Positions 1 to 10,762 of a DNA stretch of 54,784 bases are shown piece after piece. The translations under genes and the position numbers were made by a program. The notes below the pieces were generated by a model. The model was not told the DNA's origin. It saw only the letters and a list, made by a program, of their open reading frames with translations, and made no database searches. Each line of letters starts with the position of its first letter. Positions within the stretch are counted from its first letter, which is position 1. Origin of the DNA: an uncultured Clostridia bacterium (GTDB taxonomy: Bacteria; Bacillota; Clostridia; Christensenellales; UBA1242); assembly GCA_947630075.1 (NCBI GenBank), contig CANRGF010000001.1:1-54784 (forward strand). The letters are read 5' to 3'.

Positions 1-1352
1 CTTACGGCCTTTTCTGCACCTTTTGCTTTATAGTGCATAGTGAATGCACCAATGGCTTGTTTGCCCACAAATTTTGCGCCTTGCTTCATCTTGCCGGTAA
101 CTCTATTCATAATGCCACCGCCAGCAGAGTAGGCATCGTCCCCATGCAGATATTGAGATAGCATAGACACGAAATCGCTCACCATAAACAGTCCTGCAAT
201 AGTGATTATCAATGGCACAATGCCAATGGCATCACTGCCAACTTTTATATGCGTGATTAGTGGCAAGATTTGGAAATATATATTTAACCCAACCACTGCG
301 CCATACGCCATGAAGAAGTTTTTGGTGAAATCTCCTTTCCATTTATTCACACCCGAGCCATCATCAAGCGGATAGAGCGCACACACAACAGGGCTAATGA
401 CGAAGAGAAGCAACAGTGTGAACAATCGCTTAATCATGCCAAAAGATAGTTTCATGAGCGCAAATATCATAAACACACCACCCGCACCCAGCAATAGGTA
501 GTTTATATCCCAAATTTTATAATCCAACATTACGGATGTAACTGTGGAAATGTTGGCAAACGGGGTTTTATAATAAGCGTCTAGCAAATTGGCATAATCT
601 TCATCTCGGCTAGAATCGTAAGAGCCACTAACCAAAGAAGTGTCTAGCCCCTCCATATCTTCAAATATTTGCCCAATCGAAGAGTATCCATTCCCTCCAA
701 AGAAGTGTGCCCACCAAGTGCCCGTGCCGAGTTGTGCCCAACCCGTTTTGTTAGTGTCATTATAATATCGTTGCAGTCTGCCAAAAGACACTTCTTTTTC
801 CCAGCCTCCACCACAGCGAAATACATTGCCTGTGTATGCCGACGAGACAAACAGTTGATGCGAGAGCGAACTATTGGTGAGAGAAGAACTTGATGTGGCT
901 TCGTTTAACACAACAAGCAACATATTGCCCGCAAGCACGCCCAGCAAGCAAGCAACAGGAATGAAAACGAAATGAATTAAACCCTTGAGTGCGCTAGATA
1001 TAATTTCTTGCCATTTTTTTTGCTTTGCTGCATACACATTTTTTATAAATGCCAATATGGTGAATATCACAAGCAAAAATAATGCTAAAATTGAAAACGA
1101 TATTAGCAAATTGCGAATTGTGGGTGTGTTTAGCAAATAATATAAAATGCCATTTGAATATTCATCTGTGGATGTGAAATTCATCGTAACTTCTGTGCCA
1201 CCCCAACCGACTGAACCAAATCCACCAAATGTAACGGTGCCAATGCCGGCAAAAGCAAAGAATATATCCTGCACTGCATCTATCACTGAAAAGATAACAG
1301 CAAAAAGCGGATATAAAAGCATGCCAACAATTTCTAATACCAAATCTAGCAT
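1..1352 (-). CDS. Polytopic membrane protein, VirB6/TrbL/TcpH-like candidate (C-terminus beyond window edge)
   Basis: Absent from the ORF track because it runs off the edge. Manual translation shows the minus frame open from 1352 down to 1, with an upstream in-frame TAA at 1380-1382. ATG at 1352 is preceded by AAAGGAGAA. N-terminus is MLDLVLEIVGMLLYPLFAVIFSVIDAVQDIFFAFAGIG, and there are several long hydrophobic spans (e.g. LLISFSILALFLLVIFTILAFI, LLLGAGGVFMIFALM, GIVPLIITIAGLFMV). Confidence 0.7.
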   Translation of the reverse strand, partial: MLDLVLEIVGMLLYPLFAVIFSVIDAVQDIFFAFAGIGTVTFGGFGSVGWGGTEVTMNFTSTDEYSNGILYYLLNTPTIRNLLISFSILALFLLVIFTILAFIKNVYAAKQKKWQEIISSALKGLIHFVFIPVACLLGVLAGNMLLVVLNEATSSSSLTNSSLSHQLFVSSAYTGNVFRCGGGWEKEVSFGRLQRYYNDTNKTGWAQLGTGTWWAHFFGGNGYSSIGQIFEDMEGLDTSLVSGSYDSSRDEDYANLLDAYYKTPFANISTVTSVMLDYKIWDINYLLLGAGGVFMIFALMKLSFGMIKRLFTLLLLFVISPVVCALYPLDDGSGVNKWKGDFTKNFFMAYGAVVGLNIYFQILPLITHIKVGSDAIGIVPLIITIAGLFMVSDFVSMLSQYLHGDDAYSAGGGIMNRVTGKMKQGAKFVGKQAIGAFTMHYKAKGAEKAV

Positions 1353-1432
1353 AAATGTTTTCTCCTTTGAATAGTGGTTTTAACTTGACCATAAGAAAAC
1401 AAAGATATTGAAAAACCCCTATATTTATTTTT

Positions 1433-1461
1433 ATTATATACTAATTTAACAAATTAATCAA
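1433..1461 (-). promoter_or_regulatory. Sigma-A type promoter for the polytopic membrane protein gene
   Basis: On the minus strand, TTGATT (1456-1461), a 17-nt spacer, then TATAAT (1433-1438). Confidence 0.5.
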
Positions 1462-1545
1462 ACAAATATTGCATTTTTCGGCAAATAAATTTAAGATTTT
1501 TAAAGCATAAATTAAGCATTTTGCACCCATAAAAGCATGAAAAAC

Positions 1546-1626
1546 GGGGGCTTTGGCGCGCGGCACGCGCGCCTGGCGGCAACGCCGCCCGCGGCTGCCA
1601 AAAGGCAGCCGCAAAGCCCCCCCCCC
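1546..1626. other. Very GC-rich branched inverted-repeat element (four-way junction / cloverleaf-like); possible complex intrinsic terminator or insulator
   Basis: Outer stem GGGGGCTTTG (1546-1555) pairs with CAAAGCCCCC (1612-1621) and encloses three perfect hairpins. These are GCGCGCG 1556-1562 / 1566-1572 (loop GCA), GGCGGC 1575-1580 / 1584-1589 (loop AAC), and CGGCTGCC 1592-1599 / 1604-1611 (loop AAAA). A C-run extends to 1626. The flanks are AT-rich. On the minus strand the structure is followed by GTTTTTC. Confidence 0.8.
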
Positions 1627-1630
1627 TGTT

Positions 1631-3115
1631 TTAATTCTGCGAATATGAAGGCTGGAAATCTGCAAAAGAGAACGGCTCTTCATTCCCTGAAAATGTGATA
1701 AACAATCCAGAAAGTTTGAGCGTGTAAATTCCGTCTTCACCTAGTTGCATATAAAATTGAGCATTTAGATTGGCGTCTTTCAACACACCCCACAAAGATT
1801 TTGCAACTTTTAGCGGATTGTTTTCTGCCGATGAAGTGCTGTCTATATCCGCGAAAGGCTCGAGCGTTAAATTTTCTTCTAATTCAAAATTGTAGATATC
1901 TCCCGCTCCTTCCGTGTATTTGCCCTCAAGGAAAAGTTTTTTATCAAACTCTGTCTCTCCCATAAGATACATGTTAAACTTTTCTATATCGATCTTTTTA
2001 GCATTAAATGATAATAAATTTGCCTTAACTTGCTCTTTTGGCATGATAATTGCAGCGATATAGTTTTCAAATTCCACATTGTTTATGCTATATTCTTCAC
2101 TTTCACTATCCGCACTCAAAAGATAATCTTTCACATAAATCATCTGCGTGCGAGATGGCAGTTTTTCCCCATTCTCATCTTGCAATACATACACCTCGGC
2201 GAAACTCTCCAAAAAAGATTGAAGAATTTTGCCCTCCGCATCTGTAACCTCTTCGTCTGCGGTGAAAAGTGGAGCAGTTTCGTCTGTGATATAGTCGGTG
2301 AGAGATTGAGAAATTTCGTCTAAAATTTCTTCATCAATGCCAAAATATTTAATGCCCAAAACAATCTCTTTCAACTCGTCAGGAATTTCCTCTCGCGAAA
2401 TGTCCGGATTATCTTGCACATACACTTCGATTGCAATTCGTTTTACTGCTTCATAAATTTCAGGATAGTTTTGCTCAAGCGTTTCCAAATCAAACTCTGC
2501 AGGAACGTTAATATTAATGGTTATGTCGCTATAATCCTTTTTAAACTCTTCAAGAGCGTAAGAAAACGAATCGGCATAATCTCGCTGCAAATCTTGGCTT
2601 GCTTGCTCAGCATCTTCATAGAAAACGCGCATGCCATAAAACATGTCGCCCTTCATGCCCAAAGCTGAAGAAAGCCCACCGGAAGAGCCCCCGCCGATGT
2701 CTCCAAGCGTGTTGACAATGCCAATTACTACGCCAATAACCATAATCACGGCAAGAATAATCAACATCACAATTGCGATGCATGGCAAAAGGGGCACGAT
2801 TGTGGCAAGAATGCTATTAATTTTTGCCGCAAATTCTCCATGCTTTTGTGCCACAACTCTTAAGAAAGATATTGCCTCACCCGGATCTATTTTGCGCATT
2901 GCATTAAGCAATTTTAATTCATTAAAGCCAAGGATAGGCCAAAATTTAGATTTTGTCATATAAATGCGCTTCATTGCATTGAAACGAGAGCGAATGTTAT
3001 TTTCATAGCGTTGTTTGTTTAAAAGTTGCTCTTCCTCAAACGCTTCTTGCTCGGCTTGATCGGCTTCTTCAATCTCTTCTTGTGTGAGATTTTCGTCCTC
3101 TTGATTGTCCGCCAT
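1631..3115 (-). CDS. Hypothetical single-pass membrane protein (acidic cytoplasmic N-terminus, large C-terminal exo-domain); possible VirB8/TcpC-type scaffold analogue
   Basis: 494-aa ORF with start context AAAAGGAGGGTCAAATG. N-terminus is rich in D/E/Q. One long TM segment (ILATIVPLLPCIAIVMLIILAVIMVIGVVIGIV) is followed by a GGGSSGG linker. I recognise no family motif. Confidence 0.7.
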   Translation of the reverse strand: MADNQEDENLTQEEIEEADQAEQEAFEEEQLLNKQRYENNIRSRFNAMKRIYMTKSKFWPILGFNELKLLNAMRKIDPGEAISFLRVVAQKHGEFAAKINSILATIVPLLPCIAIVMLIILAVIMVIGVVIGIVNTLGDIGGGSSGGLSSALGMKGDMFYGMRVFYEDAEQASQDLQRDYADSFSYALEEFKKDYSDITININVPAEFDLETLEQNYPEIYEAVKRIAIEVYVQDNPDISREEIPDELKEIVLGIKYFGIDEEILDEISQSLTDYITDETAPLFTADEEVTDAEGKILQSFLESFAEVYVLQDENGEKLPSRTQMIYVKDYLLSADSESEEYSINNVEFENYIAAIIMPKEQVKANLLSFNAKKIDIEKFNMYLMGETEFDKKLFLEGKYTEGAGDIYNFELEENLTLEPFADIDSTSSAENNPLKVAKSLWGVLKDANLNAQFYMQLGEDGIYTLKLSGLFITFSGNEEPFSFADFQPSYSQN

Positions 3116-3224
3116 TTGACCCTCCTTTTATTAAAAATTTTCTAATTATATTTTGCTTCAAAACGCGAAATTTAGCCAAAATTTGATTTGTGATGTGCGT
3201 TGAAAAGCGATTCCAATTAACTAT

Positions 3225-3252
3225 ATTATAACAAATTTTTAGTTTTAAACAA
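3225..3252 (-). promoter_or_regulatory. Extended -10 promoter for the 494-aa gene
   Basis: On the minus strand, TTGTTT (3247-3252), a 16-nt spacer, then TGTTATAAT (TATAAT = 3225-3230). Confidence 0.45.
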
Positions 3253-3293
3253 ATGTTTTCGCTAAGAATTGCAAATTTTCATTCTTTTTTGCA

Positions 3294-3318
3294 AGAAAAA
3301 AGGGCAACACGCCCTTTT
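3294..3318 (-). terminator. Intrinsic terminator after the lipoprotein gene
   Basis: Stem AAGGGC/GCCCTT (3300-3305 / 3311-3316) with loop AACAC. On the minus strand it is followed by TTTTTCT. Confidence 0.6.
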
Positions 3319-3331
3319 AATTTTAGCCTTA

Positions 3332-3703
3332 TTAAGCAACCTTATAATAGATTACGCAACTTTGCCCACCATAAGACACTCTCATGCTATGCGTACCTTT
3401 TGTGGTTGGCGAGAAACCGCTAAGCACACCATTTTTGGCAAGCATATCTGCCAAAGACATGCCCGTTTCATCTCCTAATGTAAACTCAGCGCCTGCAGAA
3501 CCAAGAACGATAAAGTCCTCTCTCTCCTTGTCTGTCATGTTATCCCACTCTTCAGATGTTTTTTGCTGATAATTCCAAGCAGTGTCCTCCGTCATGCCTG
3601 TGTTACAAGTCAACTTAGGGGCTTCGCCGCACGCAGCTAAAACGAAAATTGCAGAACAACATAAAATTGCTGTTAAAACAAGAGAGAATAATCTTTTTTT
3701 CAT
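3332..3703 (-). CDS. Lipoprotein, unknown function
   Basis: Signal peptide with lipobox: MKKRLFSLVLTAILCCSAIFVLAAC-GE. A GGAGG RBS precedes it. It starts 8 nt after the upstream pilin-like gene. Confidence 0.8.
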   Translation of the reverse strand: MKKRLFSLVLTAILCCSAIFVLAACGEAPKLTCNTGMTEDTAWNYQQKTSEEWDNMTDKEREDFIVLGSAGAEFTLGDETGMSLADMLAKNGVLSGFSPTTKGTHSMRVSYGGQSCVIYYKVA

Positions 3704-3711
3704 GATTCCTC

Positions 3712-4089
3712 CTATCTTAGAAATCTAACAAAATTCTTCACAAGATTTATGCCACCAATAACGCCTTCATCTTCACTACTATTCGTGTCGCCAACGATTT
3801 GTGATTGACGAATAATGTCTTCGATGTTGTATGCCAAGAAGTAGAACAAAGCAACGAGCAAGACAACGACAACGATACCAACGATGACCATAATCAACTT
3901 GGACTTTGCCTCTTCTCTTTCTTGCTTTTCGTCAGCCTTAACGAATTTGATGCCGACCCAAATTGCATAAATAATGCCTGCAACACTCACAACGATTAAA
4001 ATTGGGTTGATAAGGTTAATAACTGCACTAAGCAATGTGTCTAACCAACCATAACCGGTGTTGAATTGTGATGCTAATAAACTGCTCAT
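3712..4089 (-). CDS. Small two-TM pilin-like protein (VirB2/TrbC-like topology; resembles pilin-like conjugal-transfer proteins of Gram-positive/Mollicutes ICEs)
   Basis: 125 aa. Two hydrophobic helices (ILIVVSVAGIIYAIWVGI and LIMVIVGIVVVVLLVALFYFLA) are separated by a charged loop, KFVKADEKQEREEAKSK. RBS is AAAGGGGGGA. Confidence 0.6.
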   Translation of the reverse strand: MSSLLASQFNTGYGWLDTLLSAVINLINPILIVVSVAGIIYAIWVGIKFVKADEKQEREEAKSKLIMVIVGIVVVVLLVALFYFLAYNIEDIIRQSQIVGDTNSSEDEGVIGGINLVKNFVRFLR

Positions 4090-4143
4090 AATTTCCCCCC
4101 TTTAAAGCGGCGCACACTTATTTTTGCGCCTATTTATAAATTA

Positions 4144-4172
4144 ATGATAACAAGTTAAAATTTTAAAATCAA
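4144..4172 (-). promoter_or_regulatory. Extended -10 promoter for the pilin-like/lipoprotein operon
   Basis: On the minus strand, TTGATT (4167-4172), a 17-nt spacer, then TGTTATCAT (TATCAT = 4144-4149). Confidence 0.45.
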
Positions 4173-4180
4173 CTGTTTTC

Positions 4181-4343
4181 GCACAAATTTTACAAAATTT
4201 TTAAAATTTTTTATTTGCTGCTTTTTTTGCGGAAACTGCATTGCATTAGCTTTGCCTTTTCTCACAAATTTTACAAATATTTTTAATTTTTTTATTTAGC
4301 TCTTTTTTATGAGAAAACCGCATTGCTTTGGCTTCGCCTTTTT
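4181..4343. repeat. Two tandem imperfect ~80-bp direct repeats in the divergent T4SS intergenic region
   Basis: Copy 1 (4181-4260) reads GCACAAATTTTACAAAATTTTTAAAATTTTTTATTTGCTGC..GCGGAAACTGCATTGCATTAGCTTTGCCTTTT. Copy 2 (4261-4343) reads CTCACAAATTTTACAAATATTTTTAATTTTTTTATTTAGCTC..GAGAAAACCGCATTGCTTTGGCTTCGCCTTTTT. Confidence 0.8.
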
Positions 4344-4524
4344 GCATAACAACTGACAGTTTTTCGCTAAAAAACTGCACACATCTCACTCTCATATTTT
4401 CTGATTAATTTGTGATAAATTTGCTCGTTGTCAACTTTATTTTCGCAAATATTATGATTTTTATGCAAGTTGTTTGGCAATTTTGTGCGCTTTATCTCGA
4501 CATGCAAAAAAATTTGAAAAGCAT

Positions 4525-4553
4525 TTGACAAATTTGATTAATGTTTCTATAAT
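4525..4553 (+). promoter_or_regulatory. Consensus sigma-A promoter for the coupling-protein gene
   Basis: TTGACA (4525-4530), a 17-nt spacer, then TATAAT (4548-4553). Both hexamers match consensus perfectly. Confidence 0.7.
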
Positions 4554-4654
4554 GTATTTATACTTTAATATAAATGTTATTTTTTAACTGCCCCCGCGAG
4601 TTTTTGGCTTAAATTATTAATTTAGTTTTTGTTTACTTTTAAAAAGGAGTGATT

Positions 4655-6673
4655 ATGAAACATTTTCTCAAAGTTGGCCTTAAATATGTGATTAGTGCCA
4701 TATTAATCTTCGTGATTACTGTGTTTGCTATCACATATAAAGAGGATGGATATTTTGGCTTTAACATTGAGCATATCAAGCAAGGCATCCCATTTATGTT
4801 TGTGTTTGTGGCGGAAGGATTGTTGCTAGTGTTCGACCTTATGAAGCTTATTGACGGAAAAAATGCTAAAAAAACAAAAAAAGCAGTGGATAAGGTTAAA
4901 GATGAAAAGGGAAAGGACACAAAGCAATATTTCAGCCGCGACTTCTTGACAGATGAAGATATTAAGAAAAATAAGGACTTCAACCCAAACACTCTTGCCA
5001 CACTGCGTTCTTGCAAAAAAGACGGCATTTTGGTTAGAGCAGAGATGAAAGGGAACACCACAGAAATCAACTTCGTGCAGCCAATTCACACGCTCGTGGT
5101 GGGAACAACCTCATCTGGTAAAACACAGCGATTTGTTGTGCCTTCACTGCAACTTATGAGCATGACCGCTGCCAAACCTTCGTTTGTTGTTACCGACCCA
5201 AAAGGCGAACTTTATAGCCTATGCTCAAACAAGTTTAAGTCGGAAGGGTACGAAGTGAAAGTGCTTGATCTACGCACACCATTTGCGTCTGTGCAGTGGA
5301 ACCCACTGACCTACCCTTATGATATGTACACCCGCAGTTTTAATTTGGAAAAGGAAGTGAAAGTCCACCCAGCGGGAGATAATCCGCGCAATTACAATGT
5401 GATGTTGCAACGCCAATTTGATTTTAATAGTCAAGTTTGGTTTGAATTTGACGGAAAAGCGTATGCAGACAAGGAAGTGATGGAAAACGACATCACCATC
5501 CTCAAAAAAGAACTTGAAGATAAGGCATTTGACTCTATCAACGACACTTGCACCACCCTTGCCCCAATCGAATCAGGTAAAGACCCAACTTGGGAAAAGA
5601 CGGCGCAAAACCTAATCAAAGCGGTGATTATCGCCATGCTTGAAGATAGCCGCATTCCAGAATTGGGCATGACCCGTGATAGATACAATTTCTATAATGT
5701 GGCAAAAATTTGTAATATAACCGACTCTGGGCGAGACACTTATGCCACTCTTAAAAACTATTTGTTTAATTATAGAGATAAGTTTTCCAAAGTGGCAGAC
5801 CTTGCCACCACCGCTTTGCAGAACGCAGACACAACCACTAAAAACTATATGGGCTTTGTGTCTAACAAAATGGTTTTGTTTAGCGACACGGGCATAAGTT
5901 TCCTAACAGAAAAAACGGAAATAGACTTCGTTAATCTAGACGAAAAGCCAACCGCAATTTTCCTCATCATTCCAGATGAAGTGAGAACGCGTTATCCACT
6001 TGCAATTCTGTTTGTAACTCAGCTATATAAGAGATTGGTTGAGAAAGCGCAAAGCCTTGGCGGGCATTTAAAACGAAATGTTTACTTTATGCTAGACGAG
6101 TTTGGTAACATGCCAAAATTTCCAGAATGGGGTTCAATTATGACGGTCGGCAGAAGCCGTGGCATATTCTTCGAACTTTGCGTGCAATCTTACAGCCAAC
6201 TTTATCAGGTGTATGGTCAAGACGAAGGCAAGATTATTAAAGATAACTGCCCTATTCAAGTGTATATCGCATCTGAGGACACAACCACAAACAAAGAATT
6301 TAGCGAACTACTAGGCAAGAAAACAGTTGTGCAAGAAAACGAGCAGCGAAGCGTTGGCCCAGACGGCAAAGAAAGCAAAACCTATAACACTCAAACGCTA
6401 TCAATTCCTATTGCCTACCCTGAGCAGTTGCCAACCTTCCGTGATGAAGGAAAGGTTGCAATCAAATCATTCACACCAAACGCAGCATTGAAAACCACAA
6501 TGACTTACGCTTACAAAAACAAATGCTATGACCTAACATCTGTTAGCAGAACATACTCTCAAAAGAGATTGCTTGACGAAGCCAAAGTTTATTACGACAT
6601 CAAGCAAAGAAATTCACTTTTGGGCAAAAATGACAATACTGACGATGATGATGACGATGATGATTTGTTTTAA
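4655..6673 (+). CDS. Type IV secretion coupling protein (VirD4/TraG/TraD-family ATPase)
   Basis: Two N-terminal TM helices. Walker A is VVGTTSSGKTQ and the Walker B-like motif is VYFMLDEFGNMPKF. The C-terminal tail is poly-Asp (NTDDDDDDDDLF). The track start at 4649 is GTG, so I prefer ATG at 4655, which sits 5 nt after AAGGAG. Confidence 0.85.
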   Translation: MKHFLKVGLKYVISAILIFVITVFAITYKEDGYFGFNIEHIKQGIPFMFVFVAEGLLLVFDLMKLIDGKNAKKTKKAVDKVKDEKGKDTKQYFSRDFLTDEDIKKNKDFNPNTLATLRSCKKDGILVRAEMKGNTTEINFVQPIHTLVVGTTSSGKTQRFVVPSLQLMSMTAAKPSFVVTDPKGELYSLCSNKFKSEGYEVKVLDLRTPFASVQWNPLTYPYDMYTRSFNLEKEVKVHPAGDNPRNYNVMLQRQFDFNSQVWFEFDGKAYADKEVMENDITILKKELEDKAFDSINDTCTTLAPIESGKDPTWEKTAQNLIKAVIIAMLEDSRIPELGMTRDRYNFYNVAKICNITDSGRDTYATLKNYLFNYRDKFSKVADLATTALQNADTTTKNYMGFVSNKMVLFSDTGISFLTEKTEIDFVNLDEKPTAIFLIIPDEVRTRYPLAILFVTQLYKRLVEKAQSLGGHLKRNVYFMLDEFGNMPKFPEWGSIMTVGRSRGIFFELCVQSYSQLYQVYGQDEGKIIKDNCPIQVYIASEDTTTNKEFSELLGKKTVVQENEQRSVGPDGKESKTYNTQTLSIPIAYPEQLPTFRDEGKVAIKSFTPNAALKTTMTYAYKNKCYDLTSVSRTYSQKRLLDEAKVYYDIKQRNSLLGKNDNTDDDDDDDDLF

Positions 6674-7316: not shown

Positions 7317-7393
7317 CGCGGGGTGGAGCAGCACGGCAGCTCGCTGGGCTCATAACCCAGAGGTCATTGGTTCAAATCCAATCCCCGCAACCA
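7317..7393 (+). tRNA. tRNA-Met, initiator type (anticodon CAU), CCA encoded
   Basis: The sequence reads CGCGGGGTGGAGCAGC...CTGGGCTCATAACCCAG...GGTTCAAATCC...CCCCGCAACCA. It has the C1-A72 acceptor mismatch and three consecutive G-C pairs in the anticodon stem, both initiator hallmarks. Confidence 0.9.
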
Positions 7394-9547: not shown

Positions 9548-10762
9548 ATGAAAGAGTTTAAAACTATTCCTATCACACTTGTAACGGGTTATCTTGGCAG
9601 TGGCAAAACCACGCTTTTAAACCACATCTTGGCAAACACTAAGGGTTATAAGGTGGCTGTTATAGTGAACGATATTGGCGAAGTGAATATTGATGCCGAC
9701 CTAATTGAAAAAGGCGGAATTGTAAACAAAAAAGAAGAAAGCCTGGTTGCCCTTCAAAACGGATGCATTTGCTGCACGCTAAGAAAAGATTTAATTGAGC
9801 AGTTGCACGAAATCATCAAGCAAAAGAGATTTGACCACATCATTATTGAAGCGAGTGGCATTTGCGAGCCCATTCCTATTGCGCAAACAATCAATTTTTT
9901 AACTGACAGCTTTAAAAAGCAAGGAATGCCAATTTTCTGCAAACTTGATGCCATTGTTAGCGTTGTGGACACACTGCGCATGGTGCAAGAATTTGGCTGT
10001 GGCGATGAACTTTTGAAAAAGGATATTGAAGAAGACGACATCGAAAATCTTGTTATCCAACAGATTGAATTTTGCGACATATTAATCATGAACAAAGTGA
10101 GCGATGTTAGTGCAGATGAATTAAAGCGTGTGAAACGCATAATCAAGAGCCTTCAACCAAAAGCCAAGTTGATTGAAGCGGACTATTCTAATGTGGACCT
10201 AAGCGAGATTTTAGACACCAACTTATTTGACATGGAAAATGTGCTCACTTCTGCTGGCTGGTTCCAGGAAATTGACAAAGACATTGACGATGATGACCAT
10301 GATGAAGATGAGGACGAAGATGAAGATGATGACGAGAGCGAGCATCACGAACACAATCACCACCATCATCACCACCACGACCACGAAGGCGGTGAAACGG
10401 AAGAATATGGCATTGGCACATTTGTTTACTATCGCAGGCGTCCGTTTGACAGACTAAAATTTGAAAATTGGGCAAATAATGACTACGGCAAGCAGATAAT
10501 CCGCACAAAGGGTTTGGTTTATTTCACCAACGATAAAAACATGAGTTATATTTACGAGCAAGCGGGAAGGCAAAGAATGCTTAGCGAGAATGGTCCGTGG
10601 TATGCCACTCTGCCAAAATATCAAATTGAGCAACTGCTTTTAAACGATGAAAAATTCCGCCACGATTGGGACGAAACCTATGGCGATAGAATGATAAAAC
10701 TTGTGTTTATCGGCCAACATATCAACAAGGCAAAGATAACTGAAGAGCTAGATAAAATTTAG
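9548..10762 (+). CDS. COG0523/CobW-family GTPase metallochaperone (zinc-homeostasis type)
   Basis: P-loop is GYLGSGKTTLLN. The metal-binding motif GCICCT is present. An acidic and His-rich insert reads DDDDHDEDEDEDEDDDESEHHEHNHHHHHHHDHE. The CobW C-terminal domain is present. Confidence 0.9.
   Translation: MKEFKTIPITLVTGYLGSGKTTLLNHILANTKGYKVAVIVNDIGEVNIDADLIEKGGIVNKKEESLVALQNGCICCTLRKDLIEQLHEIIKQKRFDHIIIEASGICEPIPIAQTINFLTDSFKKQGMPIFCKLDAIVSVVDTLRMVQEFGCGDELLKKDIEEDDIENLVIQQIEFCDILIMNKVSDVSADELKRVKRIIKSLQPKAKLIEADYSNVDLSEILDTNLFDMENVLTSAGWFQEIDKDIDDDDHDEDEDEDEDDDESEHHEHNHHHHHHHDHEGGETEEYGIGTFVYYRRRPFDRLKFENWANNDYGKQIIRTKGLVYFTNDKNMSYIYEQAGRQRMLSENGPWYATLPKYQIEQLLLNDEKFRHDWDETYGDRMIKLVFIGQHINKAKITEELDKI

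Follow-up and report, generated by a model that had tools for sequence, protein, structure and literature searches.

The window, that is, the whole stretch of 54,784 nucleotides that was analysed, belongs to a contig of an uncultured Clostridia bacterium and carries T4SS genes at its left end. On the minus strand the order is pilin gene, 123-aa gene, 494-aa gene, a GC-rich element, a promoter site, an RBS and a multi-pass membrane gene, the pilin and lipoprotein-like genes (3332..4089) being the first genes of the transcription unit to which the 494-aa gene belongs. The pilin leader is about 55 nt long, as estimated from a promoter-like site at 4172-4144. The features of the locus, with the parts of the element given as they are read in the minus-strand RNA, are as follows.

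4649-6673, divergent from the minus-strand genes: VirD4-type coupling-protein gene.
3712-4089, minus strand: T4SS pilin gene (PF18895).
3332-3703, minus strand: 123-aa lipoprotein-like gene.
1631..3115, minus strand: 494-aa membrane-anchored gene, upstream of the element; stop codon TAA at 1633-1631.
1546..1626, minus strand: whole four-way-junction element, 80% G+C, read as RNA on this strand.
1622..1626, minus strand: five extra G that complete G10 (GGAGGGGG in the second lineage).
1612..1621, minus strand: 5' arm of the outer stem, GGGGGCUUUG, beginning 10 nt past the stop codon.
1591..1612, minus strand: inner hairpin transcribed first, 9 bp with a 4-nt loop, GCGGCUGCC UUUU GGCAGCCGC.
1575..1589, minus strand: second inner hairpin, 6 bp with a 3-nt loop, GGCGGC GUU GCCGCC.
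1555..1573, minus strand: third inner hairpin, 7-8 bp with a 3-nt loop, GGCGCGCG UGC CGCGCGCC.
1546..1555, minus strand: 3' arm of the outer stem, CAAAGCCCCC, with its G/C base abutting the U-tract.
1539..1545, minus strand: GUUUUUC tail, the presumed U-tract, directly after the outer stem and followed by AUGCUUUUAU.
1433..1461, minus strand: promoter TTGATT-17-TATAAT for the downstream gene; such a site is present in all 11 T4SS loci compared.
1367-1362, minus strand: RBS AAGGAG of the multi-pass membrane gene.
1..1352, minus strand: multi-pass membrane gene, VirB6-like by position only; ATG at 1352-1350, running off the left window end.

Open reading frames overlapping the element (1441-1740 on the minus strand, 1537-1698 on the plus strand) were dismissed as spurious. 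A tRNA-Met gene (7317-7393) adjoins the coupling-protein gene, and in two related loci a G/C-rich stretch beside that gene is tRNA-Met-like by eye (L003, around 1048-1087; L004, around 980-1019), so that a tRNA-Met in this place may be a common landmark or possibly an integration site. Further along the window, a full-length OLE RNA (RF01071; 28798-29398, plus strand, 345 bits) points to an anaerobic Firmicute host, and a 404-aa protein encoded at 9548-10762 (plus strand) combines a P-loop (GYLGSGKT) at the N-terminus with a long run of acidic residues and a tract rich in His, HHEHNHHHHHHHDHE; we take it to resemble the CobW/metallochaperone GTPases.

It is clear that the element (window 1546-1626) stands apart in composition, with 65 of its 81 nucleotides (80%) being G or C versus 37% G+C for the contig. 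The initial annotation had described these 81 nt as almost entirely G and C; the strong enrichment stands, while the words 'almost entirely' go too far. The AT-rich T4SS setting that it described is borne out by the G+C content of the contig and by the pilin and coupling-protein genes nearby, and the element does lie where it was placed, between the stop codon of the 494-aa gene (1633-1631) and the TTGATT-17-TATAAT site (1461-1433), with GTTTTTC following it on the minus strand at 1545-1539. On the window strand the element reads GGGGGCTTTG GCGCGCG-GCA-CGCGCGC C T GGCGGC-AAC-GCCGCC C GCGGCTGCC-AAAA-GGCAGCCGC AAAGCCCCC CCCCC, and the order in the minus-strand RNA is UAA-AACA-G5-GGGGGCUUUG ... 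CAAAGCCCCC-GUUUUUCAUGCUUUUAU. Its A/T bases are confined to the loops and to CTTTG/CAAAG, and 44 of the 46 bases of the hairpin stems are G or C. Within the 54.8 kb, only the element reaches a G+C content of at least 75% over 40 nt, and the run of 10 C already reported at 1617-1626 (G10 on the coding strand) is the sole run of G or C of at least 7 in the window. The run may be prone to slippage, or it may result from a sequencing error in a homopolymer.

Folding of both strands with ViennaRNA, which had been proposed in the initial annotation, gives the same four-way junction on each. Its outer stem has 9-10 bp, and the three hairpins that this stem closes are perfect, measuring 7-8 bp (3-nt loop), 6 bp (3-nt loop) and 8-9 bp (4-nt loop). 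The minimum-energy register is 9+8+6+9 bp with two unpaired junction bases. The register at the junction is ambiguous, given that one G and one C can pair either way (G1555 pairs either in the third inner hairpin or in the outer stem), and the fold of 10+7+6+8 bp drawn originally is also valid. All 32 pairs are Watson-Crick, with no G-U, and for this reason the fold is equally open to either DNA strand. The minimum free energies are -68.7 kcal/mol for the minus-strand RNA (z -4.9 against dinucleotide shuffles), -63.3 kcal/mol for the plus-strand RNA (z -4.8) and -43.9 kcal/mol for the DNA (z -6.5), with 0-1 of 200 shuffles folding as stably as the element. When all 105-nt windows were folded on both strands, the element came out on top at -69.2 kcal/mol; the second best, inside the OLE RNA, reached -46.9 kcal/mol, and the mean was -17.5 kcal/mol (sd 6.3).

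The 494-aa protein has a single relative among 5.8 billion proteins, at 92% identity, and the contig of that relative (ENA ERZ27249467 NODE_3255, here L001) carries the element in the same place. The same holds for contig CANQDP010000008.1 of an uncultured Clostridia MAG (GTDB; L002). These two contigs are 99.9% identical to each other, and each shares 92% DNA identity with the window. A protein identical to the 494-aa product was also present in the protein collection (P0045), and two short members of its 90% cluster (P0047, P0048) were set aside as unrelated repeat peptides from tiny contigs. An assembly or sequencing artefact, or a chimeric insertion, might be suspected from a single-copy element with a composition wholly unlike that of its surroundings. 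Given that a lineage 92% identical carries the same structure in two separate assemblies, with point differences of its own, the element is not an artefact, and this early suspicion can be set aside as having next to no probability. The point differences are GGAGGGGG in place of G10 and a change of G to T at 1609, which breaks one pair of the 9-bp hairpin and is uncompensated.

Between the two lineages, positions 1556-1616 are identical at 60 of 61 sites, while the flanking genes agree at 83-86% of their third codon positions; at 16% divergence, the binomial probability of such a match is about 3e-4. On this comparison the G/C module does not appear to be decaying as neutral sequence would in an AT-rich genome. 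The remainder of the spacer is as conserved as the element (188/193 identical), which means that the conservation is not specific to the fold, and with two lineages only the comparison gives no covariation support for it. Intermediate forms of the element could not be recovered, given that the protein database contains no relatives between 46% and 97% identity. Three clustered substitutions versus L001 occur at 1524-1527 (GGGTGC versus GAGCAC, minus strand) in a spacer that is otherwise nearly invariant, and they fall in the loop of a weak second hairpin just 3' of the element.

The search for further copies was negative in the window and in the collections scanned. In the window there is no second copy even with 3 mismatches, as had been reported. 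Scans with a double-hairpin pattern gave no match in IMG/VR or in the JGI metagenomes and one match in 185,579 GTDB species genomes, which is the orthologous locus L002. Megablast of window 1-4600 against plasmids and phages gave no match, and sensitive blastn of the element against the same collections returned only short chance matches to genomes of high G+C such as Ralstonia and mycobacteriophages (E 0.02-1). The Rfam search that had been proposed produced no family match: with Rfam 15 there was nothing at the gathering threshold, and a search relaxed to E 10 gave chance sub-threshold matches alone, such as tfoR and RsmW, the best of them at 16.4 bits versus a threshold of 70. ARAGORN found no tRNA-like cloverleaf in the element. 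A target-site duplication is absent, the flanks AAAAC and GTTTT being inverted and not direct repeats. The lack of another copy or of a family match in the collections searched argues against a mobile repeat or a known RNA family, and the small mobile repeat considered in the initial annotation is thus not supported. A dispersed palindromic repeat or MITE of the REP or BIME kind is made unlikely by the single copy in the window, the one orthologous GTDB match and the missing target-site duplication, and a DNA-uptake sequence was ruled out because the element is single-copy. A riboswitch or attenuator for the downstream gene was likewise rejected, given that the element lies upstream of the promoter of that gene and has almost no unpaired conserved bases.

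The REP/BIME sequences of enterobacteria and the 'positive retroregulator' of the Bacillus thuringiensis cry gene are 3'-end stabilisers of mRNA, being G/C-rich stem-loops in 3' untranslated or intercistronic positions that shield the mRNA from 3' exonucleases and set differential expression within operons. The element resembles REP/BIME in having stable G/C-rich stem-loops in a 3' or intercistronic position. It differs from them in that theirs are dispersed, multi-copy and made of one repeated palindrome, whereas the element is single-copy and has three different palindromes within a fourth stem. The GC clusters of yeast mitochondria and palindromic G/C-rich insertions akin to them in AT-rich genomes, which are multi-copy, mobile and eukaryotic-organellar, are similar in forming short G/C-rich hairpin islands within AT-rich intergenic DNA; the element differs from them in lacking a second copy in the collections searched.

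The surroundings of the element can be compared across a wider group of loci. The downstream VirB6-like protein has about 43 homologues at roughly 40% identity, and a minimal T4SS cluster is found at about this level of identity in many uncultured low-GC Clostridia; a scan of metagenomes with the VirB6-like alignment yielded 3 loci only. Ten independent related loci were read (among them L003, L004, L006, L008 and L010-L014). In all of them the gene order is kept, with the coupling-protein gene on the opposite strand, the pilin gene, sometimes a small gene, a gene of about 500 aa, a gap, and the VirB6-like and VirB4-like genes. The gap measures 154-445 nt, the VirB6-like protein about 770-860 aa and the VirB4-like ATPase about 915 aa. 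The genes of about 500 aa are orthologues of the 494-aa gene, with alignments that extend to the C-terminus at 28% identity (E 1e-30 and 2e-22).

At the stop codon of the gene of about 500 aa, or just past it, 8 of the 10 loci have a simple hairpin that runs into TTTTT(T), as exemplified by GTGAGA-TTGTT-TCTCAC-GTTTTTAATTTG in L004. These hairpins have energies of about -10 to -22 kcal/mol, with some flanking sequence folded along, and a G/C island was found in the terminator slot of none of the 10 relatives. Exactly one TTGNNN-17-TATAAT site is located 43-165 nt upstream of the VirB6-like start in all 11 loci, the window included, and these promoter sites often have TTGATTAATT...TAGTATATAAT in common despite a protein identity of about 40%. 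The hairpin with a T-run in 8 of 10 loci, together with the promoter in 11 of 11, indicates that the slot is a conserved boundary in which a terminator is followed by a promoter, and by comparison with the relatives the element is taken to occupy the terminator position of this slot. The structure, position and authenticity of the element, its positional homology with simple terminators and its conservation in two lineages are all directly established.

Some relatives depart from this pattern in detail. The terminator slot of L012 (2678-2790) contains an imperfect hairpin of about 100 nt (-37 kcal/mol) with three GTTGCAA motifs and no T-run. In L006 (around 5560-5600), L008 (around 2535-2580) and L010 (around 2655-2690) the terminator hairpin spans the stop codon of the gene of about 500 aa, which lies in or next to the loop, and translation could therefore interfere with termination there.

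The neighbours of the cluster bear on the idea, raised from the outset, that the element is an oriT-like cruciform. More broadly, it could act at the DNA level as a folded single strand or cruciform used by the T4SS or by the host. It might then be an oriT or a site recognised by a relaxase, a site of single-strand priming, or one to which a junction-binding protein attaches. Both DNA strands do fold (-43.9 kcal/mol, z -6.5) with Watson-Crick pairs throughout, and the element lies inside a T4SS cluster that adjoins a coupling-protein gene. Nonetheless, neither the flanks within the window nor, in any of the relatives, the 3-6 kb around the cluster contained a relaxase or nickase gene, and relatives that have these T4SS genes do without such an element. 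The cluster lies in differing chromosomal contexts, with tRNA-Met next to the coupling-protein gene here, spoVT next to VirB4 in L006, L011 and L014, and transporters elsewhere, and no mobility genes were seen among the neighbours. The missing relaxase and the varying neighbours argue against an oriT. Stems of 6-9 bp are also too short for extrusion from duplex DNA, and the orientation and the U-tract suit a function in RNA. A DNA-level site is for these reasons considered very unlikely, and the cluster may be a vertically inherited chromosomal secretion or uptake system and not a conjugative element.

At the RNA level, several properties of an intrinsic terminator are present. GUUUUUC comes immediately after CAAAGCCCCC on the minus strand, with 5 U in the first 8 nt, and the element marks a transcription-unit boundary on the same strand, 10 nt past the TAA and with the conserved promoter downstream. 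The AAAAC upstream of the outer stem is complementary to the GUUUU tail. An A-stretch complementary to the U-tail is a feature of many strong terminators. The stem starts 10 nt beyond the stop codon (AACA and five G), which is presumably about the edge of the footprint of the terminating ribosome. The property that is not found is a single unbranched hairpin with a short loop (about 3-8 nt), given that the loop measures 57 nt and holds three hairpins. By energy evaluation the three inner hairpins on their own reach -50.0 kcal/mol, and inclusion of the outer stem brings this to -65.1 kcal/mol, which makes the closure of the outer stem worth -15.1 kcal/mol; the outer stem with a plain tetraloop reaches -19.5 kcal/mol. 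The nascent RNA was also folded stepwise, at equilibrium and with the last 9 nt withheld as an RNA-DNA hybrid. In this model the hairpins form in the order of their synthesis and the outer stem forms last, closing when the 3' end is at 1540-1536, that is, 7-9 nt past the base of the stem and inside the U-rich tail. As modelled, this late closure is the geometry of intrinsic termination.

The following sequence of events is proposed on this basis. RNA polymerase would clear the TAA stop codon of the 494-aa gene, and the three G/C hairpins would fold successively as they emerge. The emerging CAAAGCCCCC would then pair with GGGGGCUUUG, forming a 9-10-bp stem and a compact four-way junction whose G/C base is set against GUUUUUC. 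This last helix, at about -15 kcal/mol, equals an ordinary terminator hairpin and should therefore release the transcript, presumably 7-9 nt downstream. Expression of the VirB6-like and VirB4-like genes would then start at a conserved promoter of their own, which lies 85 nt beyond. The inner module would thus replace the loop of the terminator and give an extremely stable 3' end (-65 kcal/mol), and it may protect the upstream mRNA or make termination more robust.

The likeness to canonical intrinsic terminators, including those in the slot of L003, L004, L006, L008, L010, L011 and L013, extends to the G/C-based stem, the U-run, the position just past a stop codon, the A-rich stretch complementary to the tail, the closing helix of about -15 kcal/mol and the promoter of the next gene that follows. 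The difference lies in the loop, which here consists of three perfect G/C hairpins (57 nt) that create a four-way junction and bring the total to -65 kcal/mol. The other terminator-like sites of the window are simpler, as had been pointed out; they consist of one stem each, 5-13 bp long, in which no more than 4 pairs are G-C.

The closest described case of an unusually strong terminator is TerR on pLS20, a plasmid from Bacillus subtilis; TerR is one unbranched hairpin of 15 bp with a long U-tract, in which the extra length of the helix, and not its sequence, gives resistance to conAn processive antitermination of a Gram-positive conjugation operon (PMC10325885). The element is similar to TerR in being an unusually strong predicted terminator in or at the end of a Gram-positive conjugation or T4SS operon. 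It differs in being branched. Its outer stem has 9-10 bp, and the 5' strand reaches 18 pairs only by coaxial stacking, where the TerR type would call for a contiguous stem of at least 14 bp. It differs also in the pilin leader, which is only about 55 nt long here, and in that relatives with the same cluster use short hairpins.

The best reading of these data is that the element is an intrinsic terminator or 3'-end clamp in which the loop has been replaced by a GC-rich three-hairpin module. More specifically, with a probability of roughly 0.6, it would be the Rho-independent terminator and stable 3'-end structure of the unit that encodes the pilin, the lipoprotein and the 494-aa protein in a minimal Gram-positive-type T4SS. 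In this reading we infer termination from the stem and its GUUUUUC tail, from the simple hairpins with T-runs in 8 of 10 relatives and from the promoter in 11 of 11, and the stabilising role is a putative one. As a precedent, internal terminators have been found to fix subunit stoichiometry in Clostridia (PMC9045158). The leading idea of the initial annotation, an unusually elaborate intrinsic terminator or insulator, has therefore proved the best supported. Against it stand the short U-tract (5 U, then C-A-U-G-C-UUUU) and the structured 57-nt loop, which is outside the range of terminator predictors; the consensus scan did not list the site. A precedent for a branched or four-way-junction terminator was not found in the literature. 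Given that the relatives manage with simple hairpins, the role as a terminator also leaves the existence of the G/C module unaccounted for.

The short U-tract is also among the arguments for a different RNA function, in which the element would act in processing or stability. Its perfect, coaxially stacked helices would serve as an RNase III site or as a block to 3' exonucleases in a read-through transcript, and the amount of the pilin segment would no longer be tied to that of the VirB6/VirB4 segment. This is consistent with the extreme stability (-65 to -69 kcal/mol), with the 18 contiguous pairs formed by the 5' strand across outer stem and 9-bp hairpin, and with a position between genes that probably need different levels of expression. 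What speaks against a stability element is that a U-run comes after the stem, exactly as the relatives' simple terminators have it, and that the separate conserved promoter downstream makes a read-through transcript unnecessary. This function is considered unlikely.

The origin of the inner module is a separate question from the function of the outer stem. The outer stem and its flanks alone (AAAAC-GGGGGCTTTG ... CAAAGCCCCC-GTTTTT) make a textbook terminator, and the inner 57 nt could be a neutral or selfish insertion in its loop that adds nothing to a working terminator. Such an insertion might consist of DNA from a foreign high-GC source, of a very small mobile palindrome or of hairpins made de novo by template switching during replication. 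The simple hairpins of the relatives agree with this, as does a G+C content foreign to a 37% G+C genome, and stems that are perfect and free of G-U are expected of recently created inverted repeats. Template switching has been documented to make perfect hairpins (PMC8794818), and template switching during replication would be a plausible origin of the three perfect stems. The insertion finds no parallel in another copy, whether in the window, the 185,579 species genomes, the JGI metagenomes, IMG/VR, plasmids or phages, and it left no target-site duplication. Furthermore, the preservation of 60 of 61 positions across lineages about 15% apart at silent sites, despite the AT-biased composition, argues against neutrality. 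Such a neutral or selfish insertion is on balance unlikely.

The opposite possibility is that the inner module is a selected add-on that defines a natural class of branched 'clamped' terminators. Such terminators could be immune to antitermination or to interference by the ribosome. Alternatively, they could provide a nuclease-proof 3' end or a dock for a protein that binds junctions, and in this way adjust the pilin-to-channel subunit ratio in the chromosomal minimal T4SS of uncultured gut Clostridia. This remains speculative and is likewise thought to be unlikely.

Most likely, then, the element is a genuine oddity of a single locus rather than something new in kind, and a mundane function is compatible with the data. 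Its reach is limited to a single locus in two closely related uncultured lineages, with no family, and relatives with the same secretion genes do without it. If the element terminates transcription, this would mean that intrinsic terminators tolerate a pre-folded multi-helix junction instead of a loop. The element would also be a clean case for the de novo birth of perfect hairpins in an AT-rich genome, and in low-GC Gram-positive hosts it could be of use as a compact natural part wherever a very stable 3' end or a hard stop is wanted.
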